64,000 nucleotides of DNA from Candidatus Latescibacterota bacterium. GTDB lineage: Bacteria > Latescibacterota > UBA2968 > UBA8231. The translations under genes and the position numbers were made by a program. Under the pieces are notes generated by a model. That model worked only from the letters and a program-made list of their open reading frames with translations, did no database searches and was not told where the DNA came from. The stretch spans positions 576,001 through 640,000 of the forward strand of contig OZ241889.1 of assembly GCA_965203355.1 (NCBI GenBank), read 5' to 3'. Below, one piece after another: positions 4,001-35,157 of the stretch. How positions within the stretch are numbered: the first letter of the stretch is position 1; each line of letters starts with the position of its first letter.

Positions 4001-4278
4001 TCCACCGACAGCATGAAACGCACGGCGCGGCGGCAACTATCGGGCAGCTCTTGTTCCACCGCTTCGCGCCACCCGGCTTTGAGCTGGTACAGACCCTCTT
4101 CGGCTGGTTCGAGTTGCTCAGATAGTTCAGCGAACCACGCTGGATGCGTGTAGTCGCCGGTGCCTACTACGTCGACGCCTTTGAGCGCCGACCACTTGTG
4201 CAAATTAGCAGGGTTTAGGTCGCGGCTGGTCGCTCGCGCAAAACGCGAGTGCAAATGCACGTCGATTACGAACTGCAT
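1063..4278 (-). CDS. Endonuclease Q-like PHP domain fused to a UvrD/Rep SF1 helicase
   Basis: N-term: HLHS, HIWTP, ETGLSSD, NSDAHS and a CxxC...CxxC zinc finger. C-term: AGPGSGKT, DEFQD, GDPDQAIYSFRGA, NYRS, TLHAAKGLEF, EERRLFYVGMTRA. Confidence 0.9.
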   Translation of the reverse strand: MQFVIDVHLHSRFARATSRDLNPANLHKWSALKGVDVVGTGDYTHPAWFAELSEQLEPAEEGLYQLKAGWREAVEQELPDSCRRAVRFMLSVEISTIYKKGDKTRKIHHVVILPTLESVARLNRRLGAIGNLHSDGRPILGLDSRALLEICLEADEDVLFIPAHIWTPHFAVLGASSGFDSLEECYEDLLPHIFAVETGLSSDPPMNWRLSALDRYAILSNSDAHSPQKLAREATCFDTECSYPGIYSALKYRNPARFLGTLEFYPEEGKYHYDGHRKCAVCYKPAQTIAAQGTCPVCGRKLTVGVLHRVEKLADRPEGFRPDEAPSYEYLIPLDEVIGAAVGVGPKSKKVRAVYDRLLAEIGPELALLRHAGLEAIESCAGPLVAEGIRRMRCGEVEIYPGHDGEYGVISVFSEEERVRLKGQGALFDLGPTAAPKMAEEVRVSAVQSPRSASTEQAEQDADASDVAQRQVEEAAGGPLVVVAGPGSGKTRVLTRRIAGLVASGVNTGQIMAITFTRRAAGQMRQRLSALLGGESGLGAMRVGTFHQLALSLLRDLGCEPKLVLDEVEARRLLEGVLADAGLSGSVAAAGRAISLAKAAAQGPDEVAENWRPHYDAYQAALHAYGACDYDDILLDLLRLLEADAAVREQVRARFPYLLIDEFQDLNAAQYGLVLQLAGAGAGLMAIGDPDQAIYSFRGASLDYFACLRDNFPAAQVFSLGTNYRSQGHIVEAAAAVIARNPRREAIELVAVRPGKEPTRLLEVPSETAEGIAVVREIARMVGGTDMVQTDAGAEGTRSFADFAVLFRTGRQGRVLEECFRKEGLPYRLVGQKGFLQAPAVRAALAFARYASISQEDVRRWQALEAMGAEPHILRQVRRGELSAAARDRVAVLEARIAEYRQWAAQEGAGSWLRRWQAEFGDPEDEDLQHLARVADEAGTLAQLLETVLLGAEADYEERGGPQGPEAVALMTLHAAKGLEFPVVFICGVEDGLIPFRERDADLAEERRLFYVGMTRAEEELVLLRARSRQHYGERVPCAPSPFVEEIPAHLLVREDAAMPRRREAEQMSLF

Positions 4279-4333
4279 GTTTGCTCCCGGCGTTGGATAG
4301 GAATAGGTCGTGATTGCCCGCGTTTCATGGCCA

Positions 4334-4353
4334 TAGTATACTAGAATATTCTA
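4334..4353. promoter_or_regulatory. Overlapping AT-rich palindromes, possible operator between divergent genes
   Basis: TAGTATACTA (4334-4343) and TAGAATATTCTA (4342-4353) in a GC-rich genome. Confidence 0.35.
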
Positions 4354-4498
4354 CAACCAACAGCCAGACTTAGGTGACGCCTTTTGTCAGGGCTGTGTCT
4401 TGCTTCGCCAGTACGTCAACGAAAGCGTCGCCTAGGGCGTCCTCAGCTACGGTAGGAGACATCTTCGGCGACACTGTAGATGATCGTGGAGGTGCATT

Positions 4499-5686
4499 AT
4501 GAGTGGGCCTATTTACGTCAATCCCCAAGTCTTGCGCTGGGCGCGTACCAGTTTGGGGTTCTCGCAGGAAGAAGTGGCTCAGCGCATGAATAAGAAGGCC
4601 ACAGATATTGATGCTTGGGAACGCGGCGCGGCGTCTCCAACATATATTCAATTGGAAAAGCTGGCACACAAAATCTATAGACGCCCGATCGCATTATTCT
4701 TCTTTCCCGAGGTGCCGGAAGAGGAAACCATAGAGCAAGCATTTCGCACTTTGCCTGAGGATGAATTGCTGCGTATTCCGCCATGGATGCGTTACCTGAT
4801 CCGCAAGGCAAGGGTACTACAACTCAATCTTTCCGAACTGTGTGACGGTGTGAACCCGGCAAAACGCAAGGTGTTGCGCGATCTTGACTTTGCCCCATCT
4901 GTTGCTGTCGCCGACATGGCGAAGCAAGTCCGTACCTACCTAGGAATTGAACTCGCTGAACAGCAGGCATGGAAAAACACTGACGATGCTCTCAAGCGTT
5001 GGCGGGAAGTGCTGGAGGGATGCGGAGTCTTTGTTTTTAAGGACACCTTCAATCCGCCTAGCCAAAGGAGAGTACGTACAAGCGAGAGTCCTTTTTCTGG
5101 TTTCTGCTTAGAAGACCCGGATTTTCCGATAATCTACGTCAACAACAACAACGCTAAACCCCGTCAGATTTTCACCTTGTTCCACGAACTAGCGCATCTT
5201 CTGATGCACACAAGTGGGATATATATTCGGCAGGAAAGCTACATTGAGCACATGACCGGCGACGATAAACGCATAGAAGTGCTCTGCAATCTATTTGCCG
5301 CTGAGTTTCTGGTCCCCTCCCACGATTTCGAGGCGCACTCGGCTAGCAGTTCTATTGACGATCTCGCTATTGAAAGTTGGGCCAATCTGTACTGCGTTAG
5401 TCGCGAAACCATTCTGCGTCGTCTGCTCGACCAAGCACGAGTAAGCCAACATGACTATGAACAGAAGGTAGCGCAATGGTCGGAGCAAACAAGAGGTGGG
5501 GGTGGGGGTGGTAATTACTATCTGACCAAAGGAACGTATCTGGGTGAACGGTACATTGAAATGGTGTTTAGCCATTATCACCGAGGACACATTTCGGTGG
5601 AGCGAGTCGCCGACTATCTAGGTGAATCGACGAAGAACGTTCCCGGCATGGAAGAATGGCTCTTCAAGCAGGGAACAATGGCATGA
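4499..5686 (+). CDS. Xre HTH plus ImmA/IrrE (Peptidase M78) metallopeptidase
   Basis: N-terminal HTH (LRWARTSLGFSQEEVA...WERG) and RQIFTLFHELAH zinc motif. GGAGG RBS upstream. Confidence 0.9.
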   Translation: MSGPIYVNPQVLRWARTSLGFSQEEVAQRMNKKATDIDAWERGAASPTYIQLEKLAHKIYRRPIALFFFPEVPEEETIEQAFRTLPEDELLRIPPWMRYLIRKARVLQLNLSELCDGVNPAKRKVLRDLDFAPSVAVADMAKQVRTYLGIELAEQQAWKNTDDALKRWREVLEGCGVFVFKDTFNPPSQRRVRTSESPFSGFCLEDPDFPIIYVNNNNAKPRQIFTLFHELAHLLMHTSGIYIRQESYIEHMTGDDKRIEVLCNLFAAEFLVPSHDFEAHSASSSIDDLAIESWANLYCVSRETILRRLLDQARVSQHDYEQKVAQWSEQTRGGGGGGNYYLTKGTYLGERYIEMVFSHYHRGHISVERVADYLGESTKNVPGMEEWLFKQGTMA

Positions 5687-6159
5687 CAATCTATGTGTTC
5701 GACAGCAGTCCACTAATCGATCTTTTTCTCCACTATTACCGGACGCGATTTCCCTCTCTGTGGGCAGCATTTGACGCGATGGTTACACAGGGTCGCATTA
5801 CTTCGACGCGAGAAGTATTTAACGAATTGAACGCACGTGGAGATGACTTAGCGGCTTGGTGTGCAGAAAATAGGCAGCAGGTATTTATAACGCCAAGTGC
5901 GCAGGAAGTGGATTTTGTCAGGGAGATATTTGAAGTTAGGCACTTTCAGGCGATGATTCGCAGGAAGGCACGCCTTCAGGGAAGTTTGGTTGCCGATCCG
6001 TTTGTTATTGCGCGAGCAACGTGTTTAGAAAATGGTTGCGTTGTAACGATCGAAAAACACAGTCCCAATGCCGCGAAAATTCCGAATGTTTGTGAACATT
6101 TTGGAGTCGATTGTATTGATCTCGAAGAATTCATGGAACGGGAGCAATGGCGTTTTTGA
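5683..6159 (+). CDS. DUF4411-family PIN-domain protein
   Basis: YVFDSSPLI, ADPFVIA, VVTIE and KIPNVCEHFGV motifs. ATGA overlap with the upstream gene. Confidence 0.85.
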   Translation: MTIYVFDSSPLIDLFLHYYRTRFPSLWAAFDAMVTQGRITSTREVFNELNARGDDLAAWCAENRQQVFITPSAQEVDFVREIFEVRHFQAMIRRKARLQGSLVADPFVIARATCLENGCVVTIEKHSPNAAKIPNVCEHFGVDCIDLEEFMEREQWRF

Positions 6160-6897: not shown

Positions 6898-9141
6898 TTA
6901 TTGATCCAACCCGCTCACGGCAGCGACGAGTGCCGCGGTCGTAATGCCGAAGTGCGCCCACGTCTCCATATGGCCTTCCGACGGGGCCGTCGTCGGGTCG
7001 GTAATGCCGACGTGCGCCACTGGAATGCCCGAGTCGCCGGCGACGCCCGCCACCAGCCCGGCAAAACCGCGCACGCCGGTGTTGTCTGCGCCGATCAGGC
7101 CATCTTCGATGGTTACCACGCCCTTGGGATAGCGGCTCACCAGCTCTTCTAAGGCAGCGGCAGGTAGCGGCAACCCGTTGATTATATGCACATCCACCGC
7201 GCCTTCGAGCTGCTCGGCCGCCTCGCCAGCGAGAAAAGCCGGCGCGCCAAAAGCCAAGATCGCCCGCTCGGCTCCAGCATAGGTGCGATAAGCCGTCAGC
7301 GGCTCCCAAGCGTCGCCCGCTTCCCACAGCGGCCCCGAGCCATCTTGCTTTGCGAGGATGGGCAGAGCGTCGCGCGGAATGCCGATGATGTGCCCTCCGT
7401 AGTGCGCCGCCATATCGCAGACAGCCAAAAAGGCCGACCGCGCATCGGCTGGCCCATAGAAGCGGTGCAGATAGGGCAAATAGCTCAAGCCGACATTGAT
7501 CCACTCCAAGCCCCAACCCGAAAAGTGATCGCGCCCAGTGCAGGCCCCCACGTGCGAGACGTGGAAGGCGACGTTGAGGCCCTCGTTGACGCCGGTGAGG
7601 TTGCGCTGATAGCGCCAGACGTCAAAACCCTCGCGGGCAATGCCCTCGTAAAAGGCGGCAAACGTCGATACCACATTGAACTGCGGACCCGGCCCGCTCA
7701 TCGCCAATCCGTCGGTGATCAGACAAGCGGCTTGCTCCTCAATGCTCATCTCGAACTGGTGATCCGCGGCCAAGAAACCGCGCGCCTTCGCCAGTTTGGT
7801 CGAGGGATCGAGGTCGCAGCTAACGACGAACACATCGTCGGGAAAATGCGCGGCCACTGCTGCGTATGCAGCCTCGGACCCAGCGCGCGGGCTTTCGCGG
7901 CCACCAACCGCAGGCAAGCCGACCTTTTCCCGCACATCCTCCGGCAGAACCAAGTTGCGGCTACCGGGAGCGGGTCTGGCCAGGGTCTCGACTTGGCGCT
8001 TCTCGTCTTGGCGCAGCGCGGCAAGGGCTTGGCTCGCGGCCGCTGTCTTTTGCAACAGCGGGTTGCCCAGCACTTGCGCGGCGTCGCGGCCCTTCATGTG
8101 GCCATCGTGATGCCCGGCGCCGCCGGGGAGCTTATTGACCAAAAAGAGGCACTCGAGCATCGGCACTACGTCGCGGTAGCTCATCAGCGAGCCGGGGACC
8201 CAGATGCGGGTGCTGAGATCAACGCCGTGCTCGGCGGCAAACGCGGCGACCTCGGAACCAAGTCCCAAGCGCTCGCCCAAGTCGCCGAGTTGCTCGTGCG
8301 TTCCCGTGGGATAGATCAGCGCGGGCCGACCTTGCTGCGCCAGTTTGTAGCCTTGGACATAGGTTTCGTAGAGCACCGCGGCGTCGTGCAAGCTCTCGAT
8401 CTCGATGACTTCTACGCCCAGCGACGCGACGATCGGGCGCGGATCCTTGTCCATAATGCCCTCGGTGGCCCCCGAAAGCTGGATGCCGTTGCGGTGCATG
8501 ACGAAAGTGATCGGCGCTTTGTGGACTGCGGCGCCGTTGAAGCCGTTGAGTGCTTGGCCCGAGATGTAGCCAGCGTCGCCACAGTGGCAGATGACCCAAC
8601 CGCCCTCGCCGTGCTTGGCCCGCTTGCCGAGGGCCTGGCCCACGGCCACCGGGATCATCACCCCCAAGCGACCGCCGTTGAGTTGGGTGCCCCCCGGCAG
8701 CCAAGACACGTGCCCGGGCGCGTCGAGCCCGCGGCGAAAGCCCTCGACGACGATCTCCTCACCGATAAAGCCCAGTGCCGCCAATGCCGCGTAGTAGCCC
8801 ACTGAAGTGTGGGCGTGTTCAATGGTGTACTCAATCCGCTCGTAGTCGGTGATCGCCAAAGTCAGCAAAAGCGACGGGATCAGCTCCAGGCCGCCGCCGA
8901 GGTGGTCCAACTCGCCGATCGCGGCCAGCGAGGCCAGCGAGCGGATCGCAATCGCGGCGGCCTCGATCTGCAAGCCCTCTAGCGCGGCGATTTGCTCTTG
9001 GTGCAGCACGTGTTGTTTGCCGATATACAAGGTGAGCGGCAAGACCTCGGAATGCACTTTCTCGCCTAGGTAGCGCACGCCCGCCAACAGCTCTTTGTTG
9101 CGCTGCTGTTGTCCGGTTTGCGCCGCTTCGATCCCCCGCAT
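6898..9141 (-). CDS. Divergent transketolase-like ThDP-dependent enzyme
   Basis: DHLGGGL, HAH, PGH, GDAG...NG ThDP motif, IEEQ and STFAAF. GGGAG RBS before ATG 9141. Confidence 0.75.
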   Translation of the reverse strand: MRGIEAAQTGQQQRNKELLAGVRYLGEKVHSEVLPLTLYIGKQHVLHQEQIAALEGLQIEAAAIAIRSLASLAAIGELDHLGGGLELIPSLLLTLAITDYERIEYTIEHAHTSVGYYAALAALGFIGEEIVVEGFRRGLDAPGHVSWLPGGTQLNGGRLGVMIPVAVGQALGKRAKHGEGGWVICHCGDAGYISGQALNGFNGAAVHKAPITFVMHRNGIQLSGATEGIMDKDPRPIVASLGVEVIEIESLHDAAVLYETYVQGYKLAQQGRPALIYPTGTHEQLGDLGERLGLGSEVAAFAAEHGVDLSTRIWVPGSLMSYRDVVPMLECLFLVNKLPGGAGHHDGHMKGRDAAQVLGNPLLQKTAAASQALAALRQDEKRQVETLARPAPGSRNLVLPEDVREKVGLPAVGGRESPRAGSEAAYAAVAAHFPDDVFVVSCDLDPSTKLAKARGFLAADHQFEMSIEEQAACLITDGLAMSGPGPQFNVVSTFAAFYEGIAREGFDVWRYQRNLTGVNEGLNVAFHVSHVGACTGRDHFSGWGLEWINVGLSYLPYLHRFYGPADARSAFLAVCDMAAHYGGHIIGIPRDALPILAKQDGSGPLWEAGDAWEPLTAYRTYAGAERAILAFGAPAFLAGEAAEQLEGAVDVHIINGLPLPAAALEELVSRYPKGVVTIEDGLIGADNTGVRGFAGLVAGVAGDSGIPVAHVGITDPTTAPSEGHMETWAHFGITTAALVAAVSGLDQ

Positions 9142-9218
9142 GTACAACTCCCTAAGTGGGTATTTTTAATTGAATGAAAGCGTCGTAAAAGTATAAACCC
9201 AGCACCGAATGCGAGCAA

Positions 9219-10229
9219 TTAACGCGGCTTGAACTGCACGGCCAATTTCTCGGCCCACGCTTTGTTTGCGTCGATCGTGCGCCCGGCGTTGTGCGGCGTA
9301 TGCACCACGTTGTGCCGCCCCAATAGCGGATCGTCTAAAGGCAGCGGCTCTTGGTCCCACACGTCCGCCGCTAAGCTCAGTTCGTCGGCCATCACTCGCC
9401 GCCGGATGGCGTCGGTATCGCAGATTTTGGCTCGAGTCACCAGCACCACCAGACAGCCCTTGGGTAGCGCGTTGACGTGCTCGGCCTGGACCAAGCCGTG
9501 GGTCGATTCCGTGAGCGGCACCATGGGCGCGAACACTTCGGCATCGGCGACTAGCTGCTCCAAGTGGTACTCGCGGCGCGATCCAGCTCGGTGAAAGCAC
9601 GGCTCCGCGGCAAACGGATCCCAAGCGGCCACATCGGCTCCCAGCATGGACGCGAAGCTGGCGTAGCGACTGGCTATATTGCCGGCCCCGACGATCCGCA
9701 CCCGCTTGCCGCACAGCGTCCCACTCGCAAAGGCCGGGTCGTCGCCAAACTGGTGCCCGCGTGCGCCGGGACGGCCTTGGCCCCCGGGCGGCTCGTAGTC
9801 CCAAGGTGCTTGGCTGTGGATAATCTCTCGGTGCAACTGCGGAATTCGCCGCAGTCCGCATAGCGTCAAGGCCAGGCCAAATTCCGCCACGGTCTGCGAC
9901 CAAAACCCCTCGCTCGGATGGTCGTACACAGCGACGCCGACCTCAGCTAAATACTCGCTACAACCCTCGCCCAACCGCCGACCATAAGCCCCCTGAAAGG
10001 TCGCTTCCTGCAAGGCCGTAAAAAGTTGCAGACACCTCAGACTCACTGGCACCCCTAGCGCAGCCAACCGCGCCACTTGGCTCGGCTCTTCAATCACCTC
10101 GCCCAAGGGCCGCTCGTCTCCGGGCGTTAGACGCACAAAATCCGCTGCGGGCCACAGGGTGCGGAAGTGGTCGGCGGCAAAGGGCCAAACTCCGTCAAAG
10201 TCTGGATGAACGGCGATCAAATCGCCCAT
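9219..10229 (-). CDS. D-isomer-specific 2-hydroxyacid dehydrogenase family protein
   Basis: GAGNIA, PLTEST, VTRA, DVWDQEPL and TPHNAG motifs. Start re-assigned just after the upstream stop. Confidence 0.85.
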   Translation of the reverse strand: MGDLIAVHPDFDGVWPFAADHFRTLWPAADFVRLTPGDERPLGEVIEEPSQVARLAALGVPVSLRCLQLFTALQEATFQGAYGRRLGEGCSEYLAEVGVAVYDHPSEGFWSQTVAEFGLALTLCGLRRIPQLHREIIHSQAPWDYEPPGGQGRPGARGHQFGDDPAFASGTLCGKRVRIVGAGNIASRYASFASMLGADVAAWDPFAAEPCFHRAGSRREYHLEQLVADAEVFAPMVPLTESTHGLVQAEHVNALPKGCLVVLVTRAKICDTDAIRRRVMADELSLAADVWDQEPLPLDDPLLGRHNVVHTPHNAGRTIDANKAWAEKLAVQFKPR

Positions 10230-10230
10230 G

Positions 10231-11112
10231 TCATTCGCTCGCCTCACAAAAAAACGGCTGCGTCCAAGCAAACGCCTCTCCTGCGCCCCAACACTCAAAG
10301 CGCACGTAGCCTGCCCGCTCTGGCACTTCCACCTCAATTTCCCGTCTATCGGCTACGGCTATCCGCTTCGCGCCGGCGCACAAGGCCACGATCCGCGCCG
10401 CATTCTCCGTCTCAATCCAAATCCTGTTTCCCTCGGCTTGGATCTGGGTGATCTCGACTCCGGTCGAGGCGTAAAAGCGACCGGCGCACAGGGCCTCTAT
10501 CACGCCGCTAGCGGTCTCCTCCTCCACATAGGCCACATTCCATCCCAACCCCACATCGCCTTTCGCCGCGTGGCTGTCGTCGTTGGCAAATCCCCACAGG
10601 CGGCGTCCCGCGCTCAGCAGCATGTCCCAGCGATTCGTCGCGTAGGGGCTGCCTTCCAAGCGGCCCACCACGCCGTTGTATATCTCCAAGCCCACGTAGC
10701 CCTCGCAGGCCTGCAAAAGCTCCTGCGGACAGTGGTTGAAATGGTCGCGCCAGTTGGGATGGTTGAAAAGGACGAATCCTCCGCCTGCTTCGCCGACCTC
10801 GTCAATTACTCGTTGTCGGTCCGCCTCGGGTGCGACCCACGCTGTGGCCCCAACGTGCAAAACGTGCGGACCGTTGGCTGTAATTTCATTGCCCGGCACC
10901 AAGATCATCCCTTGGGCGTCGTATTGCTCGTAATCCGCTAGGGACGTATAGATGTCATGGTCGGAGATCGTCAAGAAGCCATAGCCGCGGCCCGCATAGT
11001 CGTCGATTACCGCTTGGTGATCGCGCTCGCCGTCGCTGGCGGTCGTGTGCGCGTGCAGGTTGCCGACTAGCCAGCGGCCTCCGCGCAAATTCTGATAGGG
11101 ATGTTCAATCAT
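10231..11112 (-). CDS. PHP-domain (CehA/McbA-like) metallohydrolase
   Basis: GNLHAHT..SDG, SDHD, GNE, NHP and NDDSH motifs. Confidence 0.85.
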   Translation of the reverse strand: MIEHPYQNLRGGRWLVGNLHAHTTASDGERDHQAVIDDYAGRGYGFLTISDHDIYTSLADYEQYDAQGMILVPGNEITANGPHVLHVGATAWVAPEADRQRVIDEVGEAGGGFVLFNHPNWRDHFNHCPQELLQACEGYVGLEIYNGVVGRLEGSPYATNRWDMLLSAGRRLWGFANDDSHAAKGDVGLGWNVAYVEEETASGVIEALCAGRFYASTGVEITQIQAEGNRIWIETENAARIVALCAGAKRIAVADRREIEVEVPERAGYVRFECWGAGEAFAWTQPFFCEASE

Positions 11113-11281
11113 CGCATTCTCCTTGGTTGGAAAGCGGCCTCAAAATACGGGAGCACCCGGCGGGCGACAAGGGAAGGCGCGCCGGGATCGTGTTGACGCG
11201 AAAAGTAAGCGGCCCTTTAATACAAGCCCGTGCAACGACACGTTTTGAGAACTCACAACTGAAAATCGCCAGGGGAGCCCG

Positions 11282-12436
11282 ATGAAAATCACCGATGTCC
11301 GCACGCTTTCGCTTTCGCGCGTCCACGAGCCTGAGCGTCAGTGGTACAGCGCCACCTTCCACGTGCCCAAGGCCGATTGCTCGATCTGCATCATCGAAAC
11401 CGACGAGGGGTTGCAGGGCATCGCCGAGCCTTGCGCGTACGGTGTGCCGCCTGCAATCGCCGCGCGCATCGAAGAGCTCAAGCCCAGTCTCATCGGCCGC
11501 GACCCCCGCGACCAAGACATGACGCCGCACAACGAAGCGATGCGGGCCAACGACATTGCCAACGCGGGCCTCAACTGTGCGCTGTGGGATTTGCGCGGTA
11601 AGATCGCGGGCAAACCCACCGCCGACCTGCTCTGCTCACCCGGGCAAGCACCGCTGCGCCGCCTCCGCCTCTACGCTTCCTCGGGCGTGTGCTACGACTG
11701 GGATGACCGCCCCGAATCCGTCGTCGAAGAAGCGAGCGGCTACGCTGAAGACGGTTTCACCGCCTACAAGATGCGCCTAGGCACCCATTGGGCGTGGTCG
11801 GGCGTTACCGTCGATCGCTTTCTCAAAATAGCACGCCAAGTACACGAGGCTGTGGGTGCGCGGATGGACTTAGCGCTCGACGGCAATTGCCGCCTCTCGA
11901 TGGAGGAAGCGCTGCCTATTGCCGAGGCACTCGACGAGATGGGCTGGGCTTGGTTTGAGGAGCCGGTCGAGCGCGTACCCGCGGATTACGCTCGGCTCAA
12001 CGAGGCCGTCGCCATTCCCATCACTGGCGGCGAGCCTTTTACCACGTGGGCGCAGTTCAAGCCTTTTATGGAGGCGGGCGGCTTCGGCATAGTCCAACCC
12101 GACGCTGGCGTCTGCGGCATTGACCTCTGCTTGGAAGTCGGCCACAAGGCTCACTTCGACTACAGCGGCATACCCCTGATCCCGCACAACTGGCACAACG
12201 GCCTGATGACGATGGCCAACGCCCACATGGTTGCGGCACTGCCTGCCCCACGCCTAGTCGAGCTAAACATGAAACAGGGGCCGCTACAGTGGGAGATTCT
12301 GCGCGAGCAACCGCTGATCAAAGACGGCCACTTGGTCCTGCCCGACGCCCCGGGCTTTGGCGTCGAATTGGCCGACGACCTTGAAACGCGCTTCCCGTAC
12401 ATCGAAGGCTCTTGGGGCAATCCCGTCCAGCGCTGA
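11282..12436 (+). CDS. Mandelate racemase/muconate lactonizing enzyme family protein
   Basis: ALWDLRGK, KMR, D.N, WFEEP, GGE, QPD, PH and PGFGVE motifs. Confidence 0.9.
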   Translation: MKITDVRTLSLSRVHEPERQWYSATFHVPKADCSICIIETDEGLQGIAEPCAYGVPPAIAARIEELKPSLIGRDPRDQDMTPHNEAMRANDIANAGLNCALWDLRGKIAGKPTADLLCSPGQAPLRRLRLYASSGVCYDWDDRPESVVEEASGYAEDGFTAYKMRLGTHWAWSGVTVDRFLKIARQVHEAVGARMDLALDGNCRLSMEEALPIAEALDEMGWAWFEEPVERVPADYARLNEAVAIPITGGEPFTTWAQFKPFMEAGGFGIVQPDAGVCGIDLCLEVGHKAHFDYSGIPLIPHNWHNGLMTMANAHMVAALPAPRLVELNMKQGPLQWEILREQPLIKDGHLVLPDAPGFGVELADDLETRFPYIEGSWGNPVQR

Positions 12437-12442
12437 GGATTC

Positions 12443-13276
12443 ATGGTCACGGACCTCGAAAATTATCTCTTCGACCTGCGCGGCTACCTGCACTTAGAGG
12501 GGGCACTTACCGCCGATGAAGTCAAAGACCTCAACGACTGCCTCGACGCCATCCCGCCGCTGGAGCCGGGCGACTGGTACGGCCACATCCACGCCCATAT
12601 CTACGGCACGGTTGACGGCCTCAACTTGCAGCAAATCTACGAGGCGGGCGAACCTTTTGAGCGGATGATCGACCATCCCGCTTGGATCGAGAAAGTCAAG
12701 CATTTCGTCGGCGGCGAAGGCACGTTCGACTACGCACACGGGCCGCTCTTCATCGACGAAAACTTTGCCAACTTCCGCCAGCCTGGGGAAGCCATCGGCC
12801 TGCACTCTGGCGGCTATCCGCCCATCATGCGCAACCAATTCCGCTACCACGGCGGACGCTACCTGTGCGGGCAAATCAACATCCTCGTCGCGCTCGCGGA
12901 TATAGGCCCGGGCGACGGCGGCACCATGCTGATCCCCGGCAGCCACAAATCCAACTTCGCGCATCCCGCCTTAGACCAGCATCGCATGAAGCCCGAGGGA
13001 GCTACCGTCGAGGGCATCACCGGCGCGGTCGAGTGCCGCATGGCTCGAGGCGACGCCTTGCTCTTCGTCGATGGCCTCTCGCACGGCTCGGCCCGACGCC
13101 AAAACGAGGGTACGCGCCGGATTTTCGTCTATCGCTACGGCCCTTCTTGGGGCAACTTCCGCCACGGCTACCGCCCCTCGGACGAGCTGTTGGCACGCCT
13201 GACGCCTGAGCGACGGCAGATCGTCTGGCCGCAAAAACCCCGCCCCCAAGGACCGCAGAAAAAGGCTACGGAATAG
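12443..13276 (+). CDS. PhyH-family Fe(II)/2-oxoglutarate oxygenase with HxG motif (candidate halogenase)
   Basis: GDGGTMLIPGSHK, GDALLF...H214, and R225. The first iron motif is H121-S-G123. Confidence 0.85.
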   Translation: MVTDLENYLFDLRGYLHLEGALTADEVKDLNDCLDAIPPLEPGDWYGHIHAHIYGTVDGLNLQQIYEAGEPFERMIDHPAWIEKVKHFVGGEGTFDYAHGPLFIDENFANFRQPGEAIGLHSGGYPPIMRNQFRYHGGRYLCGQINILVALADIGPGDGGTMLIPGSHKSNFAHPALDQHRMKPEGATVEGITGAVECRMARGDALLFVDGLSHGSARRQNEGTRRIFVYRYGPSWGNFRHGYRPSDELLARLTPERRQIVWPQKPRPQGPQKKATE

Positions 13277-13281
13277 ATTCC

Positions 13282-14163
13282 ATGAAGGGCATCATCCTCG
13301 CCGGCGGCCAAGGCACGCGCCTTTATCCTTTGACCGTATCGGTCTCCAAACAACTGCTGCCAATTTTCGACAAGCCGATGATTTACTATCCGCTCTCGGT
13401 GCTCATGCTGGCCGATATCCGCGAGATTCTCATCATCTCCAGCCCAGCACACGTCGATCTCTACCGCCAGCTTTTCGGCGATGGCGAGCGGCTGGGGCTG
13501 CGCATTGAATACGCGGTCCAAGATCGGCCCGAGGGCGTGGCACACGCCTTTGTCGTGGGGGCCGACTTCGCTGGCCGCGATCCCTGCGCCTTGATATTCG
13601 GCGACAACTTCCTCTACGGGCACGGCCTGACGGCCATTCTACAGCGCGCTAGCCAGCTACGGGAGGGCGGCTTGGCCTTCGCTTGCTACGTGAATAATCC
13701 CACGCGCTACGGGGTCGTCGAATTTGACGCCGAGGGCAACGCCATCAGCATTGAAGAGAAGCCGCAAAACCCCAAGTCCAATTACGCGGTCATCGGCCTT
13801 TATTTTTACGACGGAGAAGTCGTCGACATCGTCCGCGGCCTCAAGCCTTCGGCCCGCGGCGAGTTGGAGATTACCGATGTCAACAACGAGTATCTGCGCC
13901 GCCGACAACTCAAAATTGAGGTGTTAGGGCGGGGTTTTGCTTGGTTCGACACCGGCACCCACGAGAGCCTGCTAGAGGCCAGCGACTTCGTCCAAACCAT
14001 TGAGCACCGGCAAGGGCTCAAAGTGGGCTGCATTGAGGAAATAGCGCACCGCAAGGGCTACATTGGCGCGGATCAGCTCCTCCGCATCGCCCATTACTCC
14101 GACGACAATCCCTACTGTCTTTATCTGAAACGCCTAGTCGAAGAGCGAGGGCCAGCGTTCTGA
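13282..14163 (+). CDS. rfbA: Glucose-1-phosphate thymidylyltransferase
   Basis: GIILAGGQGTRLYPLT, SKQLLP, EEKP, SARGELEITD and GRGFAWFDTGT motifs. Confidence 0.97.
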   Translation: MKGIILAGGQGTRLYPLTVSVSKQLLPIFDKPMIYYPLSVLMLADIREILIISSPAHVDLYRQLFGDGERLGLRIEYAVQDRPEGVAHAFVVGADFAGRDPCALIFGDNFLYGHGLTAILQRASQLREGGLAFACYVNNPTRYGVVEFDAEGNAISIEEKPQNPKSNYAVIGLYFYDGEVVDIVRGLKPSARGELEITDVNNEYLRRRQLKIEVLGRGFAWFDTGTHESLLEASDFVQTIEHRQGLKVGCIEEIAHRKGYIGADQLLRIAHYSDDNPYCLYLKRLVEERGPAF

Positions 14164-14329
14164 TAACGGAGGGGGCATGGCTCCTGAGCGGATCACTTCT
14201 TTTGTATGGGACTACTCTTTAATGGGGTTCGTGTCGTCGCTTGGTCCGCTGCGTCTGTTCCACGCCGCGGCGATTGCGCCCTGCGGCCCATTTTCCTAAT
14301 CTGAAATATTTTCCCAAAGCGGAACGGCG

Positions 14330-14827
14330 ATGGACATAGAGGAATTCGACTATACTCAATGGTGCGACAGCACCGGGGCGCCGCTCGCGAAAAGGCCCGA
14401 ACGGCTCGGCGTGGCGGCCAATGGCTTTATCCGCGACAAGATCGGCAAAATCCTGCTGCAACAGCGTGCGGACAACGGTTTTTGGGGGATGCCCGGTGGC
14501 CAAGTCGAGCTCGGCGAATCCGTCGAACAGAGCGTGATGCGCGAAGTCTATGAGGAAACGGGCTTAGAGGTGCGCGTTGAGCGGCTGATCGGGATCTACT
14601 CCGAGCCGGGGGGCTACCCATTCATGCGCTATCCCAATGGTACTATCGTCCACTACGTCACCCACGTCTTTATTTGCGAACCCATTGCCGGCGCATTGCG
14701 GCTCTCCTCAGAAAGCACCAACATCGGCTATTTTGCGGCCGATGCCCTGCCCGCACAGACCTTGCTCTCGCACCGCCTCCGCATCGCGGACGCGCTGACC
14801 GGCCTAGTGTACCCGTTTATTCGCTGA
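14330..14827 (+). CDS. NUDIX hydrolase
   Basis: Nudix box GGQVELGESVEQSVMREVYEETG. Confidence 0.92.
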   Translation: MDIEEFDYTQWCDSTGAPLAKRPERLGVAANGFIRDKIGKILLQQRADNGFWGMPGGQVELGESVEQSVMREVYEETGLEVRVERLIGIYSEPGGYPFMRYPNGTIVHYVTHVFICEPIAGALRLSSESTNIGYFAADALPAQTLLSHRLRIADALTGLVYPFIR

Positions 14828-20116: not shown

Positions 20117-20291
20117 TCATTTCCCGATGGCCATCGGGTGCCCCTTGCCAGCCCGTAAGAGCTTGACATAATGTATGCTGATATGGAAGATAACTACGGT
20201 TGGGCCTAATAATCTCAACGAGCAGCGGATACGTTGCTCGCTGCGCTCCTGATTGCCCAGCGGCGCGGCGTTGAACGAACGGGAACACGAC

Positions 20292-20435
20292 ATGGCCAAG
20301 ACAGTGATTCTCGATACAAATGTGCTCTACGATGTAGGATCGACATTGCGAGGGCCGCAGGGTTCGCCCGGAGAATACGCCAGCCCGGATGCGAACTCAG
20401 TGAAGCCGCGCCAGCTAAAGACCGGAATTGTGTAA
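20292..20435 (+). pseudogene. Truncated PIN-domain gene remnant
   Basis: MAKTVILDTNVL is a typical PIN N-terminus, followed by unrelated sequence and a stop after 47 aa. Confidence 0.45.
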
Positions 20436-20461
20436 AGGAGGAGGCCGCAAAGTATCGCAAG

Positions 20462-20689
20462 ATGGACCTTGAAGACTACATTGATATCCGACCCGGTGTT
20501 CGCAGCGGCAAGCCTTGTTTCAAAGGTACCCGAATTACCGTCTACGACGTGCTGGAATACTTAGCGGGAGGGATGACTGAAGTTGAGCTTTTAGCCGATT
20601 TTCCGACTCTGACGCCGCAGCACATCCTCGCTGCACGAGAGTTTGACGCTGTCCATAATATCCGGCTTGCGTCCGGTTCCATGGCGTGA
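20462..20689 (+). CDS. DUF433 putative antitoxin
   Basis: GKPCFKGTRITVYDVLEYLAGG...DFPTL motif. Confidence 0.9.
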   Translation: MDLEDYIDIRPGVRSGKPCFKGTRITVYDVLEYLAGGMTEVELLADFPTLTPQHILAAREFDAVHNIRLASGSMA

Positions 20690-21030
20690 AACTTCTCCTC
20701 GACGAGAACCTTAGCCATCGGCTCGTTGCACGACTTGAGGGAGCTTTTCCCGGTACCATCAGTGTCGATTGTATTGGGCTTCGCAGCCAGCCTGATACAG
20801 CCATCTGGGATTATCCAGCCGCACAGGGTTTTGCAATTGCGTCGAAGGATGAAGACCTCCGTCAACTCAGTTTCTGTCGAGGCCATCCGCCAAAAGTAAT
20901 ATGGCTTGCCGTGGGAAACGCCGGGACCGACCAAATCGCGGACTTGTTGCTGCGAAATAAAAATCGAATCATTGCGTTTCTCGACCAGAATGAAAACTCC
21001 CTTCTCACCTTAGACTTGATTGCGAGATAG
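20686..21030 (+). CDS. DUF5615 PIN-like putative toxin
   Basis: MKLLLDENLS, D..IW, SKDED and GHPPKVIWL motifs. GTGA overlap with DUF433. Confidence 0.88.
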   Translation: MKLLLDENLSHRLVARLEGAFPGTISVDCIGLRSQPDTAIWDYPAAQGFAIASKDEDLRQLSFCRGHPPKVIWLAVGNAGTDQIADLLLRNKNRIIAFLDQNENSLLTLDLIAR

Positions 21031-21103
21031 TTTAGCGGTCATGCTTATCTCCAATGTTCCCCTTCAGCGCATGAGGACGAGAGCGGTAGTTAAGGAGAAT
21101 CCA

Positions 21104-24100
21104 GTGAACCGAAAAACCATCTTTTCAACGTATTTGAAAAATCTCGCTTCCGTGGCCCGACAAGGCGACGCGCGGGAGGAGAGCTTCTACCCGGCACTGG
21201 CAAAGATGCTGGAGGAAATAGCCTGTGAAGGCGTACACGTCACCACGCTTCCTCGACCCACCGAGGGCAGCAACCCAGATTTCCGTCTCTGGAACGGGAC
21301 GGATCGGATAATCGGCTATGTCGAGGCGAAGAAGCCGACCGAAGAGCGGCTGGATATTATCGAAAAATCCGAACAACTCAAACGCTACCGCGCTACGTTT
21401 CCGAATCTCATTCTCACCAACTTTCTTGAGTTCCGCTTGTACCGGAACGGCACTCCTATCCAGACGGTACAGGCAGGGCGGCCCTTGATACTCAACCAAA
21501 TTCGCACCACACCCCCGCTCGAAAACCAAGATGACCTCTACGCTTTGCTCGACCGCTTCTTGGACTTTGCGCTGCCCCAGACCTTTACCGCTGAATCTCT
21601 CGCTGTCGAACTGGCCAAGCGCACGCGCCTTCTCCGCGATGTGATCGGCGAACAGTTCCAACAGGAACGAAAAAGTCCCGGCCAGCTCTCCGGCTTCTTT
21701 GAGGCGTTCCAGACCTACCTTATCGGCTCGCTGACGCCTGCGGATTTCGCCGATCTGTTCGCGCAAACCATTACCTACGGTTTGTTCGCCGCCCGCACCC
21801 GGGCCGACAATGGCTTCAACCGGCGCGCTGCGTTCGACAATATCCCACATACCATCGGCGTCCTCCGCGATTTGTTTCGCTTCATTTCGCTCGACGAATT
21901 GCCCGATCCGCTCGCTTGGTGCGTAGATGACCTCGCCGAAGTCTTGGCCGTGGCCGACGCGCCCGGCATTCTGGATCGCTACTACCACGAAGGCAAAGGC
22001 AGCGACCCAATCGTGCATTTCTACGAGACTTTCCTAGCGCAATATGACCCCGAAGAGCGCGAGCGACGGGGAGTGTATTACACGCCCGAACCAGTAGTTG
22101 GCTACATCGTGCGTTCCCTGCACGGACTGCTCAAGACGGAATTCGACAAGCGCGACGGTCTCGCCTCTGATGGTGTGACGTTACTCGATCCCGCAGCGGG
22201 GACCATGACTTTTGTCGCTCGCGCCGCCCAAGAAGCTGTCGCCGAGTTTGAGGCCAATTATGGCAGCGGCGGAAAAGAGGATTTTATCCGTCGGCATATT
22301 CTCAGAAACTTCTATGCCCTTGAGTTGATGATGGCACCCTACGCGGTCGGCCATCTCAAGATGAGCTTTTTTCTAGAAGAACTCGGCCACCGTCTCGCCG
22401 ATGACGAGCGCGTTCCCTTCTATCTCACCAATACGCTCGACACCGAAAAATTGGAACAGAGCCGTTTGCCCGGCCTCTCCGCCCTAGCCGAGGAATCCCG
22501 CTTGGCCGACGAGGTCAAGAATCAGACCCCAATTCTGCTCATCTTGGGCAACCCGCCCTATTCGGGCCACTCGAGCAATATGGGTGAGTGGATACGGGGA
22601 TTGATCGACGATTATAAGCAAGTGGACGGCAAGCCACTGGATGAGAAAAACCCGAAGTGGCTCCAAGACGATTACGTCAAGTTTCTCCGTTTTGCCCAGT
22701 GGAAAATCGATCAAGCGGGACGCGGCATCGTGGGGATGATCACCAACCACAGTTACCTCGACAACCCCACCTTTCGCGGGATGCGCCAGAGCCTGATGCG
22801 TACCTTCGATGATATTTACATTTTCGACCTGCACGGCAATGCGTTGAAAAAAGAAACCGGCCCCGGTGGGAGTCTGGACCAGAACGTCTTCGACATTCGG
22901 CAGGGCGTGGCTATTGCTTTTTTCGTCAAACGTGATACTAAGAAAAAGTGCGATGCTGAGGTTCATCACGCCGAACTATACGGAATCCGTGAGAGCAAGT
23001 ACGACTGGCTGGACGCCCATGACCGGGGTAGCACTGAGTGGCAAAAGATAAAGCCGACCTTACCGTTCTATATATTTGCGCCGCGTGATGATGCGCTCGA
23101 AGCCAAATATCTCCGCTTCACTTCCATTCCTGATGTATTCCCGGTCAACAGCGTCGGCATCGTCACCGCACGCGACCGCCTGACGATTCGCTGGTCAGAG
23201 CAAGAGGCGTGGGATACGGTCCGCACTTTTTTAAAGATGGAGCCAGAACTGGCTCGGCAGGGATACAAACTCGGCAAAGATGCGCCAGATTGGAAAGTGA
23301 AGATGGCTCAGGAGGATTTGCTGGCTTCCGGCCCTACCCGAGAGAAAGTGGTTCCGATTTTGTACCGGCCCTTTGATATGCGCCATACTTATTATACTGG
23401 CCGATCACGCGGTTTCATTTGTAGGCCCCGCTCCGAAGTTATGCAGAATATGCTGGCCGGGGAGAATCTGGCGCTGTGTATTGGACGCCAAGGGCATGTT
23501 GTCGGTGCGGGTGAATGGAATCTGATATATTGCTCACAGAGGATGGCGGACCTCAACCTGTTCTATCGCGGCGGAAACGTGAACTTCCCTCTCTACCTCT
23601 ATCCTGTCGCCGACCTCGACGACCTCTTTGCTCACCACGAGGCGTCCGAACGACAACCGAATCTGAACCCCAAGTTAGTTGCGGCCCTAACAAAAGCACA
23701 CGACCGAGCGCCCGCGCCCGAAGACATTTTCTACTATATCTACGCCATTCTGTATGCTCCATCCTACCGTGAGAAATACGCTGAGTTTCTACGGACCGAT
23801 TTCCCGCGTGTTCCGTTCACAAAGGACCGGAAACTATTTACAGAACTCGCCGCTTTTGGTAAACGACTAGCTGAACTGCATCTTCTCAAATCACTGGAAC
23901 TCGACCCACCGACTTGTCGCTTCGAGGGCCAAGGCGATTCGGTCGTCGCAAGGACGAAGGCGCAGGGCTTTCGTTATGATGACGAGGAACAGCGTATGTA
24001 TGTCAACAAGACGCAGTATTTCGGTCCTGTTTCCCCAGCGGTTTATAAATATCATATCGGCGGCTACCAAGTCTGCGACAAGTGGTTAAAAGATCGCAAA

Positions 24101-24244
24101 GACCGCTGTCTCGACCTCGACGGTATCCGCACCTACTGTAGGCTTGTGACGGCCATCGGGCTGACACTTGAGGTTCAGCAAGAGCTCGACCTGGTGTATG
24201 CTGATACCGAGCATGATCTGGTGCTGATTTCGGCACCGAAATGA
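21104..24244 (+). CDS. Single-chain type IIG/ISP-like restriction-modification enzyme (nuclease, N6-adenine MTase, C-terminal specificity domain)
   Basis: PDF...YVEAK nuclease motif, GVYYTP, LDPAAGT motif I, GNPPY motif IV, and an ISP-type C-terminus (YRPFD, IGGYQVCDKWLKDR). AAGGAG RBS before GTG 21104. Confidence 0.88.
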   Translation: MNRKTIFSTYLKNLASVARQGDAREESFYPALAKMLEEIACEGVHVTTLPRPTEGSNPDFRLWNGTDRIIGYVEAKKPTEERLDIIEKSEQLKRYRATFPNLILTNFLEFRLYRNGTPIQTVQAGRPLILNQIRTTPPLENQDDLYALLDRFLDFALPQTFTAESLAVELAKRTRLLRDVIGEQFQQERKSPGQLSGFFEAFQTYLIGSLTPADFADLFAQTITYGLFAARTRADNGFNRRAAFDNIPHTIGVLRDLFRFISLDELPDPLAWCVDDLAEVLAVADAPGILDRYYHEGKGSDPIVHFYETFLAQYDPEERERRGVYYTPEPVVGYIVRSLHGLLKTEFDKRDGLASDGVTLLDPAAGTMTFVARAAQEAVAEFEANYGSGGKEDFIRRHILRNFYALELMMAPYAVGHLKMSFFLEELGHRLADDERVPFYLTNTLDTEKLEQSRLPGLSALAEESRLADEVKNQTPILLILGNPPYSGHSSNMGEWIRGLIDDYKQVDGKPLDEKNPKWLQDDYVKFLRFAQWKIDQAGRGIVGMITNHSYLDNPTFRGMRQSLMRTFDDIYIFDLHGNALKKETGPGGSLDQNVFDIRQGVAIAFFVKRDTKKKCDAEVHHAELYGIRESKYDWLDAHDRGSTEWQKIKPTLPFYIFAPRDDALEAKYLRFTSIPDVFPVNSVGIVTARDRLTIRWSEQEAWDTVRTFLKMEPELARQGYKLGKDAPDWKVKMAQEDLLASGPTREKVVPILYRPFDMRHTYYTGRSRGFICRPRSEVMQNMLAGENLALCIGRQGHVVGAGEWNLIYCSQRMADLNLFYRGGNVNFPLYLYPVADLDDLFAHHEASERQPNLNPKLVAALTKAHDRAPAPEDIFYYIYAILYAPSYREKYAEFLRTDFPRVPFTKDRKLFTELAAFGKRLAELHLLKSLELDPPTCRFEGQGDSVVARTKAQGFRYDDEEQRMYVNKTQYFGPVSPAVYKYHIGGYQVCDKWLKDRKDRCLDLDGIRTYCRLVTAIGLTLEVQQELDLVYADTEHDLVLISAPK

Positions 24245-31599: not shown

Positions 31600-32058
31600 C
31601 TACCTCGTAAACGTCAGCCCGACTGTTTCGATCTCTTTGAAGGGGGCGAAGTCTGCCTCGTTTTCGGTGATCAGACGATCAATCCCTTCCGCGAGCATGG
31701 TCGCCACGATGTTGCCGTCGTGGATGCGCTTGCCCGTCAGACGATGGGTCTTCACGAGATCCCGAAGACGGCGGGCCACCCGCTCTGACTCCTCGCAGAA
31801 CAGGAAAGGCGGACGGGTAAAAAAATCGACGTTCTTCAATGCGTCTTCCACGGCCAAACCAAGGCCGTTGACTTCGACAGGACGTGTGGCGACCACGAGG
31901 TATTCGCGGGTTATATGACCACTGACGGCCAAAATCGATCGGCCTACTCCTGCCGCTTGCAATAGTTCCCGAGCCTGGGCGTGGTGCTCGCGCGAACGAT
32001 CTGTGGCCGACAGAAACACGTTGGTGTCGGCGAATAGGATCTCACCGGCCGTCGTCAT
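31600..32058 (-). CDS. VapC-like PIN toxin
   Basis: FADTNVF, E, IHDGNIVATM and TEN..DF motifs. Confidence 0.88.
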   Translation of the reverse strand: MTTAGEILFADTNVFLSATDRSREHHAQARELLQAAGVGRSILAVSGHITREYLVVATRPVEVNGLGLAVEDALKNVDFFTRPPFLFCEESERVARRLRDLVKTHRLTGKRIHDGNIVATMLAEGIDRLITENEADFAPFKEIETVGLTFTR

Positions 32059-32468: not shown

Positions 32469-33470
32469 ATGGGCCTAACCACTGCCGAATGCCAGCAGTT
32501 CCACGATCTTGGCTACGTAGTCAAAGAAGACATCTACTCCCAAGCCGACCTCCAACCCCTCAAAGACGGCCTCACCGCCGTCATTGACCAGACGTGTGCC
32601 ACACTGCAAAAAGAAAGGCTACTCGGTGCCGAGACTTTTGCCGCCGAACCCTTTGAAACTCGGCTCGGTGCCCTCTTCAAAGCCAATGTCGAAGTCGGCG
32701 AGCGCGTGACCCGAGCGATCATGGGGCACGGTGGGGGCGGCTTCAAAGAACAGGCCATCCTCGACTTTTTGCGCCATCCGCCGCTCGTCTCCTGCATTGA
32801 AAGTCTCGTCGGCCCAGACATCATCGGCTCGTCCGTGTACCGCATCCGTCCTAAGGCGCCCGGCTACTCGCGCGGGGCCGTGCCTTGGCACCAAGACTCG
32901 GGCTACTTCATGCCTCACTGCGACGGAAGCCTGATCGCAACCTGCTGGATTCCCCTCGTCGATGCCACCATTGAAAACGGCTGCCTGCACGTCATCCCCA
33001 AATCGCACCGCAGCGGCGTCTATCGCCACTACACCGGCGGACAAGGCGGGTATCTCGAAATCGCCGGCGAAGACCTGCCGGGAGCCGAACCTGTGGCCTG
33101 CCCAATGCGCGCTGGCTCGGTGCTCTTCATGACCAATCTCACCCCGCACGCCTCCTTTGATAATAACACCGACATCGTCCGCTGGAGCGTCGATCTCCGC
33201 TATCAAGACGCCAAGGTTCCGAACAACATTGACGAAGACCCCAAAGACTTCGATCCAGAGCGCGACCCGGTCACCATGGCCTGCTTGCCTACGGAAGGCG
33301 ACTTTGTCATCAAAGACGCGCAAGACCCCGCGCGCGAAGTCACCGACATCGCCGAATTCAAGAAAATCCGCACCCGCTACGAACAGACCCCCGTCCACAA
33401 GCCCGGCCGCGGCTGGACCCCTTTCGCCGAGCGCGAAACCACCACTTCGCAAAGGAGGACGATCTCGTGA
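32469..33470 (+). CDS. PhyH-family Fe(II)/2OG dioxygenase (canonical HxD)
   Basis: PWHQD, WIPLVDAT.ENGCL, PH and R motifs. Confidence 0.9.
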   Translation: MGLTTAECQQFHDLGYVVKEDIYSQADLQPLKDGLTAVIDQTCATLQKERLLGAETFAAEPFETRLGALFKANVEVGERVTRAIMGHGGGGFKEQAILDFLRHPPLVSCIESLVGPDIIGSSVYRIRPKAPGYSRGAVPWHQDSGYFMPHCDGSLIATCWIPLVDATIENGCLHVIPKSHRSGVYRHYTGGQGGYLEIAGEDLPGAEPVACPMRAGSVLFMTNLTPHASFDNNTDIVRWSVDLRYQDAKVPNNIDEDPKDFDPERDPVTMACLPTEGDFVIKDAQDPAREVTDIAEFKKIRTRYEQTPVHKPGRGWTPFAERETTTSQRRTIS

Positions 33471-34890: not shown

Positions 34891-35157
34891 CTAATCGGCG
34901 TCTATCTTCTCGGCCAGCCAGACCTTGATAAGCGATTGATAGGGAACATCTCGCTTGTTGGCTGCGATCTTGATCCGCTCTAGTAAATCAACCGGCAATC
35001 TCAGGGAAATCGCCTTGGTCGGAGGTTTGAGATTGGGGAAGCGGACGCGCTTGGCTTCGCTCCATTCAACATAGTCGGTCGAATCGTGGCTTTCCCAAAA
35101 AGCCCGCTCCTCGGCCTCGCTCTTAAAGACGGGAATGGGGTTTCGTTTCTTGCTCAT
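34891..35157 (-). CDS. BrnA/CopG-family antitoxin
   Basis: IPVFKSEAEERAFWESHD...ISLRL...PYQSLIK. Confidence 0.88.
   Translation of the reverse strand: MSKKRNPIPVFKSEAEERAFWESHDSTDYVEWSEAKRVRFPNLKPPTKAISLRLPVDLLERIKIAANKRDVPYQSLIKVWLAEKIDAD

Follow-up and report, generated by a model that had tools for sequence, protein, structure and literature searches.

Does the replacement of an iron-binding acid by glycine turn a PhyH-fold protein into a halogenase? The question is raised by one gene, located at 12443..13276 (+) in a stretch of 64,000 nucleotides from a Candidatus Latescibacterota bacterium (contig OZ241889.1), which we call the window. A first-pass annotation, made from the letters of the window, had proposed that this open reading frame (ORF) of 277 aa (P0001) encodes either a free-standing halogenase or an atypical oxygenase, on the grounds that its first iron motif reads H121-S-G123, with a distal H214 and an R225 binding 2-oxoglutarate; translation and Pfam bear out these residues and the PhyH fold. 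An acid four residues ahead of H214, D210, had been overlooked. Our answer is that the protein is quite probably a PhyH oxygenase dependent on Fe(II) and 2-oxoglutarate, whose predicted site H121/D210/H214 is rearranged but complete, as in the orthoester synthase HygX. Of the two options first offered, the oxygenase is thus retained, and the halogenase is opposed by D210, by the match to HygX, and by the covariation of the two acid positions.

Membership in the PhyH family is supported both by the family model and by the fold. Pfam PhyH (PF05721) matches residues 10-226 over 212 of its 213 model positions (E 8.1e-18; 65.9 bits against a cut-off of 22), and the AlphaFold2 (AF2) model, built from a 70-sequence alignment, is a double-stranded beta-helix with a pLDDT of 91.5 and a pTM of 0.90. 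The protein has neither an N-terminal extension nor a fused domain. Fused domains were also considered in its relatives as a clue to function, a track dropped since all 12 of the longer relatives scanned contain nothing besides PhyH (two of them with two matched PhyH stretches). The target matches no NCBIfam family at E <= 0.001, including the chlorinating enzyme family TIGR01762, and the ESM Atlas returned only unnamed PhyH clusters for it. Among 3589 candidates, 2993 are relatives at E <= 0.001; the best 120 are 69-90% identical to the target, and among the names of their sources are Latescibacteria, Gemmatimonadota, Zixibacteria, Handelsmanbacteria, and Anaerolineae. When representatives at 50% identity were searched, 1305 matched at E <= 0.001, of which 80 reach E <= 1e-30. 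The family is large and strongly conserved across phyla.

Predicted position of the iron-binding acid

Residue numbers were verified by script and by translation of two sub-stretches. The first, AIGLHSGGYPPI, starts at 12791 and places H121 at 12803-12805 and G123 at 12809-12811; the second, DALLFVDGLSHGSARRQNEGTRRI, starts at 13052 and places D210 at 13070-13072, H214 at 13082-13084, and R225 at 13115-13117 (all on the + strand). The canonical PhyH HxD/E motif of strand II is absent: H121-S122-G123 (12803..12811) keeps the predicted proximal iron-binding histidine, with glycine in the place of the usual Asp or Glu. The AF2 model puts H121 in a short strand (120-121) right after the long strand 102-112. 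The second half of the site, D210-G-L-S-H214 (13070..13084), has the form D/E-x3-H and comprises the distal histidine and a predicted relocated carboxylate. Eleven residues or so after the distal histidine, as expected of a PhyH protein, comes an arginine, R225, which lies within strand 225-234 of the model, the last of the barrel, and probably binds the C5 carboxylate of 2-oxoglutarate; S216, in the H-G-S motif (13088..13090), would be a further contact of this cosubstrate, both roles being carried over from the PhyH family.

Conservation was read from an alignment of 341 sequences, namely 271 stored proteins and 70 ORFs from fetched loci, and each count below is given over the sequences that have a residue at the position. 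The loci come from a scan that found at least 574 stretches in species-representative genomes, 542 of them encoding a relative; the best 80 were kept, all at least 72% identical. H121 is conserved in 291/300 relatives, G123 in 287/292, H214 in 266/279, R225 in 269/279, and S216 in 243/280. Position 210 is acidic in 268 of 276 relatives (D in 261, E in 7). All four iron-site columns are occupied in 242 relatives. The pattern H121/G123/(D or E)210/H214 is found in 232 of these, with D in 225 and E in 7, and most of the 10 that deviate from it are metagenomic fragments, either short or in two pieces. H121, S122, G123, H214, and R225 do not vary among 27 close homologues, 26 of which have D at position 210. 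Among 21 sequences of wider diversity, with identities as low as 29%, H121 and H214 again do not vary, and position 210 holds D (18 sequences) or E (3 sequences).

Such conservation bears on whether the protein is an active 2-oxoglutarate enzyme in the first place. A PhyH-fold protein could be catalytically inactive or work independently of 2-oxoglutarate, as a binding protein or an isomerase, for instance; NvfE, annotated as an Fe/2-oxoglutarate oxygenase, is described as acting without O2 and 2-oxoglutarate (PMC13374393). We regard this as scarcely credible for the target, with H121, D210, H214, S216, and R225 all conserved, and with 69-90% identity among the best 120 relatives from several phyla, which points to strong selection on an intact active site.

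Several other residues were considered for the site. The target contains 14 histidines and a further HxG, H136-G-G138, so the tripeptide by itself is weak evidence of anything; H121-S-G123 becomes meaningful because it is conserved. HMMER pairs the Y-H-G-G-R around H136 with Y-H-D-G-K of HygX, which made H136-G-G138 a candidate for the true first motif. We rejected it because H136 is less conserved (H in only 212/290 relatives, and replaced by Y, Y, R, and L in 4 of the 27 close homologues) and because HygX has its own L-H-G-G further upstream. As third ligand, E116 was rejected, being E in 213/301 relatives and G in 45. D158 and D204 were also set aside although they are conserved; we take them to belong to the usual structural motifs of the PhyH fold.

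The proposal of a radical halogenase is to be weighed against these counts. It holds that G123 opens a site for halide, that iron is held by H121 and H214 only, and that a small free molecule is chlorinated by the enzyme at one of its unactivated carbons. The target does share HxG/A, the distal histidine, and the 2-oxoglutarate-binding arginine with Fe(II)/2-oxoglutarate halogenases (SyrB2, as well as WelO5, BesD, and AdaV, named in the first-pass annotation, the last as AdeV); its HxG is nearly invariant, R225 indicates that 2-oxoglutarate binding has been kept, and HxG/A is the very motif by which such halogenases are mined (PMC11186838, PMC13519999). Short HxA/G searches are, however, reported to yield false positives (PMC13519999), and, unlike the halogenases, the target has a conserved carboxylate at -4 from the distal histidine that is predicted to complete the triad. 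The halogenase proposal itself hinged on no other Asp or Glu completing the triad; on comparative grounds, D210 looks like exactly that residue, being acidic in nearly all relatives and falling in the column of the relocated Glu of HygX.

The paralogues offer an independent view of the two acid positions. The fetched loci hold 40 further PhyH paralogues, 38 of them informative for both motifs. Fourteen read H-G-A (13) or H-G-S (1), and all 14 have an acid just before the distal histidine, either E at -4 (7 paralogues) or D at -5 with a one-residue insertion (7 paralogues). The other 26 read H-L-D, H-I-D, H-R-D, or H-S-D. Two of them are cut short ahead of the second motif; the remaining 24 span the region, and not one of them shows an acid at -4 or -5. 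The other PhyH gene of the window, at 32469..33470 (+), had been described as having the normal HQD, and it does read P-W-H-Q-D-S-G-Y-F; ahead of its distal histidine, it reads T-N-L-T-P-H, with no acid. Each of the 38 informative paralogues, thus, has an acid at exactly one of the two positions. A swap of ligands predicts just such an either/or pattern, which is hard to square with an iron site free of carboxylate. We consider this covariation, in which the acid of D/E-x3-H appears with the loss of the HxD acid, as the main new evidence weighing against a halogenase.

Context adds to it. The gene had been placed outside any cluster for non-ribosomal peptide synthetases (NRPS) or polyketide synthases (PKS), and indeed none of the 55 ORFs called in the window has such a domain; no carrier-protein gene is found in the window either. 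Of the traits of a halogenase, the target shows the HxG/A replacement and, as far as comparison tells, lacks three others: an iron site free of carboxylate, membership in a halogenase family, and a biosynthetic context. Together with the best sequence and fold match being HygX and no halogenase, this makes a radical halogenase very improbable here.

Kinship with HygX and the predicted reaction

HygX is the hygromycin B orthoester synthase of Streptomyces hygroscopicus (PDB 4XC9, 4XCA, 4XCB, and 4ZPI). It is an oxidative cyclase and no halogenase. According to a 2026 review, it turns hygromycin C into hygromycin B by forming the orthoester oxidatively; its site has the form H-X-G...E-X3-H, with the acid relocated, glycine in its old place, and Lys137 sitting in the gap left by the glycine (PMC13374393). 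By the definition taken from this review (H-X-G on strand II and E/D-X3-H before strand VII), the target has a motif of the HygX type.

HygX is also its closest match in the PDB, whether searched with the single protein (E 8.6e-14) or with the family profile (E 1e-24). Other matches of the profile are weaker (PHYH, E 2.5e-11; EctD, 7.8e-11; AviO1, 6e-7; PHYHD1, 3e-5; EvdO1, 4.3e-5), and the halogenase SyrB2 is marginal, with an E-value of 1.3e-3 and 46th place out of 55. Foldseek gave the same answer for the fold: its top 10 PDB matches are all HygX chains, with E-values of 9.6e-19 to 1.7e-17, TM of 0.67-0.78, and 22-23% identity. The other matches listed to rank 50 are fungal and bacterial 2-oxoglutarate oxygenases (SptF, DhiD, AndA, TlxI/J, FtmOx1, AsqJ, and OkaE); none of those listed is described as a halogenase, though one could rank lower among the at least 500 matches at E <= 0.001.

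All HMMER alignments lay L-N-E-A-L-M-H-G-T of HygX over F-V-D-G-L-S-H-G-S of the target or over T-E-x-L-T-H-G of two distant members of the family, P0183 and P0260, and D210 is, thus, taken as the homologue of the relocated Glu of HygX. P0183 and P0260 align with HygX from end to end and have Glu in the column of D210. The likeness goes beyond the metal site: besides the PhyH-type double-stranded beta-helix and the arrangement H-x-G...acid-x3-H-G, the two proteins share an N-terminal Y-[LI]-F-D motif and a P/Q-G-S-H-K motif.

On these grounds, we propose that the metal centre of the target works like that of HygX, a reading that we hold to be quite probable as a whole. The target would be a further PhyH oxygenase with a relocated triad of the HygX type and not a new kind of site. 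The enzyme would be cytoplasmic, and its two histidine ligands of iron would be H121, from barrel strand II, and H214, from strand VII. The carboxylate normally found two residues past the first histidine would be replaced by G123, and D210, in the turn between strands VI and VII, would supply it instead. 2-Oxoglutarate would bind iron in a bidentate manner, held by R225 and S216, and O2 would take the sixth position. With two histidines, an aspartate, bidentate 2-oxoglutarate, and O2 around the metal, no coordination position would be left for a halide, and no chlorination would be expected. The ferryl species would abstract a hydrogen from the substrate, followed either by hydroxyl rebound or by oxidative C-O bond formation as in HygX; the sequence cannot tell one from the other.

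Some observations weigh against this reading, and we gather them here. First, the HxG stretches of HygX and of the target are left unaligned by HMMER and were matched by eye: the histidine of V-L-Y-L-H-G-G-N-S in HygX lies 25 residues ahead of Y-H-D-G-K, and H121 in G-L-H-S-G-G of the target lies 15 residues ahead of Y-H-G-G-R, so that L-H-G-G of HygX would correspond to L-H-S-G-G of the target given a loop about 10 residues longer in HygX. Second, the second sphere differs, since the column of HygX Lys137 holds an asparagine, N146 (12878..12880, +), in the target; this column is N in 239, D in 21, S in 13, and K in 2 of 288 relatives, a comparison that takes the chain index of 4xc9_A to be the same as the published numbering. 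Third, the Asp of the target is one carbon shorter than the Glu of HygX. Fourth, the ligand set of HygX is taken here from the review cited above (PMC13374393). Fifth, gene neighbourhoods vary between lineages, and no partner is common to all 80 loci. Last, a metagenomic protein 90% identical to the target, P0002, has Ala at position 210 and, hence, neither acid.

We considered whether P0002 represents a natural lineage free of the carboxylate and rejected this on the sequences of its 90% cluster. The cluster has 9 members; of the 5 others that could be aligned, one ends just before the site and all 4 that cover it have D210. The Ala of P0002, which comes from a single 3.3-kb contig, is, thus, a singleton and not the mark of a lineage, and would be either a sequencing variant or a rare allele.

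The shorter side chain of D210 leads to the alternative that we find less improbable than the others, although still unlikely: D210 would be a second-sphere residue only, with iron bound by H121 and H214, and the protein would be a two-histidine oxygenase that hydroxylates and does not halogenate. A precedent is human aspartate/asparagine beta-hydroxylase, AspH, a hydroxylase with an HXG...H motif and two protein ligands (PMC12816917), which also means that HxG is no proof of halogenation. AspH stands outside the PhyH family, and the target differs from it by its predicted third, relocated ligand. A second-sphere residue need not appear exactly when the HxD acid is lost, whereas a swap of ligands fits the either/or pattern of the 38 informative paralogues; moreover, the interchange of D and E at position 210 preserves a carboxylate. 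We, thus, retain the complete H121/D210/H214 triad as the preferred explanation. Should D210 fall short of the metal, a two-histidine hydroxylase like AspH would be the fallback, and still not a halogenase.

The likeness to HygX has its limits. The acid is Glu in HygX and Asp210 in the target, Lys137 faces Asn146, and the loop that follows HxG, acidic in HygX, is basic in the target and shorter by about 10 residues. The target family is widespread and, with 69-90% identity across phyla, conserved. A search of the window and the 80 loci for genes of an orthosomycin or aminoglycoside cluster gave none; the target sits among sugar-acid, sulfatase, and housekeeping genes instead. It is not an orthosomycin orthoester synthase of the HygX, AviO1, or EvdO1/2 type, because the cluster context and the Lys are both absent. 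PHYH, EctD, and the 2'-O-methyl nucleoside demethylases PHYHD1/FJS share the Pfam family, the fold, and the dependence on 2-oxoglutarate with the target, but keep HxD, and the HxD paralogues of the fetched loci lack the acid at -4.

In the literature collection searched, we found no printed description of a PhyH subfamily with HxG and D-x3-H. HxG/A being a routine filter for Fe/2-oxoglutarate halogenases in the two mining papers cited above, the members of the target subfamily, a very abundant one within the PhyH family, would all be false positives, and the -4/-5 position before the distal histidine would offer a simple way to recognize them among PhyH proteins.

Gene neighbourhoods and candidate substrates

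In the window, the target is tightly flanked on the same strand. Upstream, after a gap of 6 nt, lies a gene of the MR/MLE enolase superfamily (11282..12436, +; Pfam MR_MLE_C, 9.1e-48), whose NCBIfam scores are 137.8 bits for arabinonate dehydratase (cut-off 650) and 121.6 for galactonate dehydratase (cut-off 311); it appears closest to sugar-acid dehydratases, yet far under their cut-offs. Downstream, after a gap of 5 nt, lies rfbA (13282..14163, +), which encodes a glucose-1-phosphate thymidylyltransferase (TIGR01207, 437 bits against a cut-off of 360.65). A divergent trio on the opposite strand (6898..11112) encodes a transketolase-like protein (6898-9147, -), a 2-hydroxyacid dehydrogenase (9219-10337, -), and a PHP metallohydrolase of the CehA/McbA family (10231-11112, -). 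The last two ORFs overlap by about 107 nt as listed; the start of the dehydrogenase is probably a codon later than the listed TTG. Further downstream in the window are genes for a NUDIX hydrolase, a UxuA-like dehydratase, and a sugar-isomerase-fold protein. A scan of 10900-14500 for promoters and terminators gave no signal above shuffles.

The 80 loci show several arrangements. The divergent trio accompanies the oxygenase in 27-28 of them, including the more distant L044, L047, L048, and L065 (71-74% identity). The arrangement of the window (context A) is confined to close relatives, with an rfbA orthologue adjacent in 26/80 loci and an MR/MLE orthologue in 22/80. We tested 11 window genes, from the transketolase-like gene to the sulfatase, and only one locus, L003, from a record of a Candidatus Latescibacterota metagenome-assembled genome, has all of them, in the same order and at 91-98% protein identity; in most other close relatives, rfbA is followed by the genes for the beta and alpha subunits of oxaloacetate decarboxylase.

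In context B (17/80 loci), a sulfatase gene on the opposite strand ends about 200 bp upstream of the target; a second sulfatase downstream, DUF6785/DUF6784 proteins, a formamidase-family protein, and two HxD PhyH paralogues are often added. Context C consists of arrays in which the target comes after two HxA PhyH paralogues and an O-methyltransferase and before an RraA-like aldolase and a heparinase II/III-like protein; these last two follow it as a pair in 9 loci. Tandem H-G-A PhyH pairs (one member being H-G-S) occur at about 5000-7900 in L036, L042, L043, L051, L054, L057, L071, and L074; their relocated acid is E at -4 or D at -5, and as they lie beside the O-methyltransferase and the target, three oxygenases with relocated triads are clustered there.

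Context D is found in 7 loci of Poribacteria, where a nucleoside hydrolase, a metallo-beta-lactamase-fold protein, a 25-26% identical MR/MLE protein, and usually an HxD PhyH protein precede the target. The gene for the inosine-uridine nucleoside hydrolase lies about 3 kb upstream in L061, L063, L064, L068, L070, and L073 (at about 3775-4743 in L063), and an H-R-D PhyH paralogue lies directly upstream of the target orthologue in L061, L063, L068, L069, and L070 (at about 7100-7950). PhyH-type enzymes are described as abundant in Poribacteria and related sponge-associated bacteria (PMC3909097, PMC12709175), PhyH being the most abundant domain family in Poribacteria, mostly of uncharacterised function (PMC3909097); a canonical HxD branch was recently reported to demethylate 2'-O-methyl nucleosides (PMC12709175). 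The H-R-D paralogue might be related to these FJS/PHYHD1 demethylases, one of which is poribacterial (PMC12709175). Finally, context E (4 loci) combines the trio at a distance with an HD-domain protein and an Amidohydro_2 protein, followed by the target; 2 of these loci have a sulfatase directly downstream of the target, and in the remaining 2 it comes about three genes later.

These neighbourhoods only loosely support a role in the catabolism of carbohydrates or sulfated sugars, and the substrate can be proposed only tentatively because no partner is universal, because all 80 loci are at least 72% identical, and because many of them are phylogenetically dependent. The protein itself gives a further hint. 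Its conserved basic residues (R112, R130, R134, R139, K169, R219, R226, R231, and R240) contrast with the Asp-rich loop that follows HxG in HygX. The aminoglycoside substrate of HygX is cationic. This contrast and the neighbouring sugar-acid and sulfatase genes suggest an anionic substrate for the target, perhaps a small molecule derived from carbohydrate; sugar acids, sulfated sugars, and nucleotide sugars are examples.

A broader idea, which we put forward as doubtful, is that a large and conserved HygX-type branch took the relocated-carboxylate site from antibiotic biosynthesis into the carbohydrate catabolism of marine and sponge-associated bacteria; the best 120 relatives of the target are spread over Latescibacterota, Gemmatimonadota, Poribacteria, Chloroflexota, and Zixibacteria. 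If true, the branch could run a sugar-degradation reaction not yet known, for which the candidates are oxidative C-O cyclisation, the removal by oxidation of a group (sulfate, methyl, or ether) carried by an anionic sugar, or the hydroxylation of a nucleotide sugar. HxG in PhyH proteins would in that case mark a distinct reaction geometry instead of halogenation. Its high conservation makes the target family a good object for assigning a new catabolic reaction.

Other loci in the window

The HQD PhyH gene at 32469..33470 (+) is followed by a HAD hydrolase gene. Its NCBIfam scores lie below the cut-offs, with 41.9 bits for methylphosphonate hydroxylase (cut-off 500) and 34.2 for TIGR01762 (cut-off 226.3).

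A bacterial RNA repair operon occupies 47059-50941 (-) and encodes Pnkp (841 aa, with kinase, phosphatase, and ligase domains) and Hen1 (455 aa). Defence and mobile elements are scattered over the window: a DUF433/DUF5615 pair followed by a Type ISP restriction enzyme of 1074 aa (20234-24241, +), an Eco29kI-family endonuclease beside an IS1595-type transposase (40524-42570, -), a BrnT toxin (35126-35443, -), and a PIN-domain protein (31600-32058, -). The G+C content falls to 0.515 at 4001-6000, against about 0.60-0.64 nearby; this dip covers a gene encoding a helix-turn-helix domain and an M78 (IrrE-like) peptidase (4499-5683, +) and a DUF4411 gene (5656-6156, +), a pair which is probably an acquired two-gene module.

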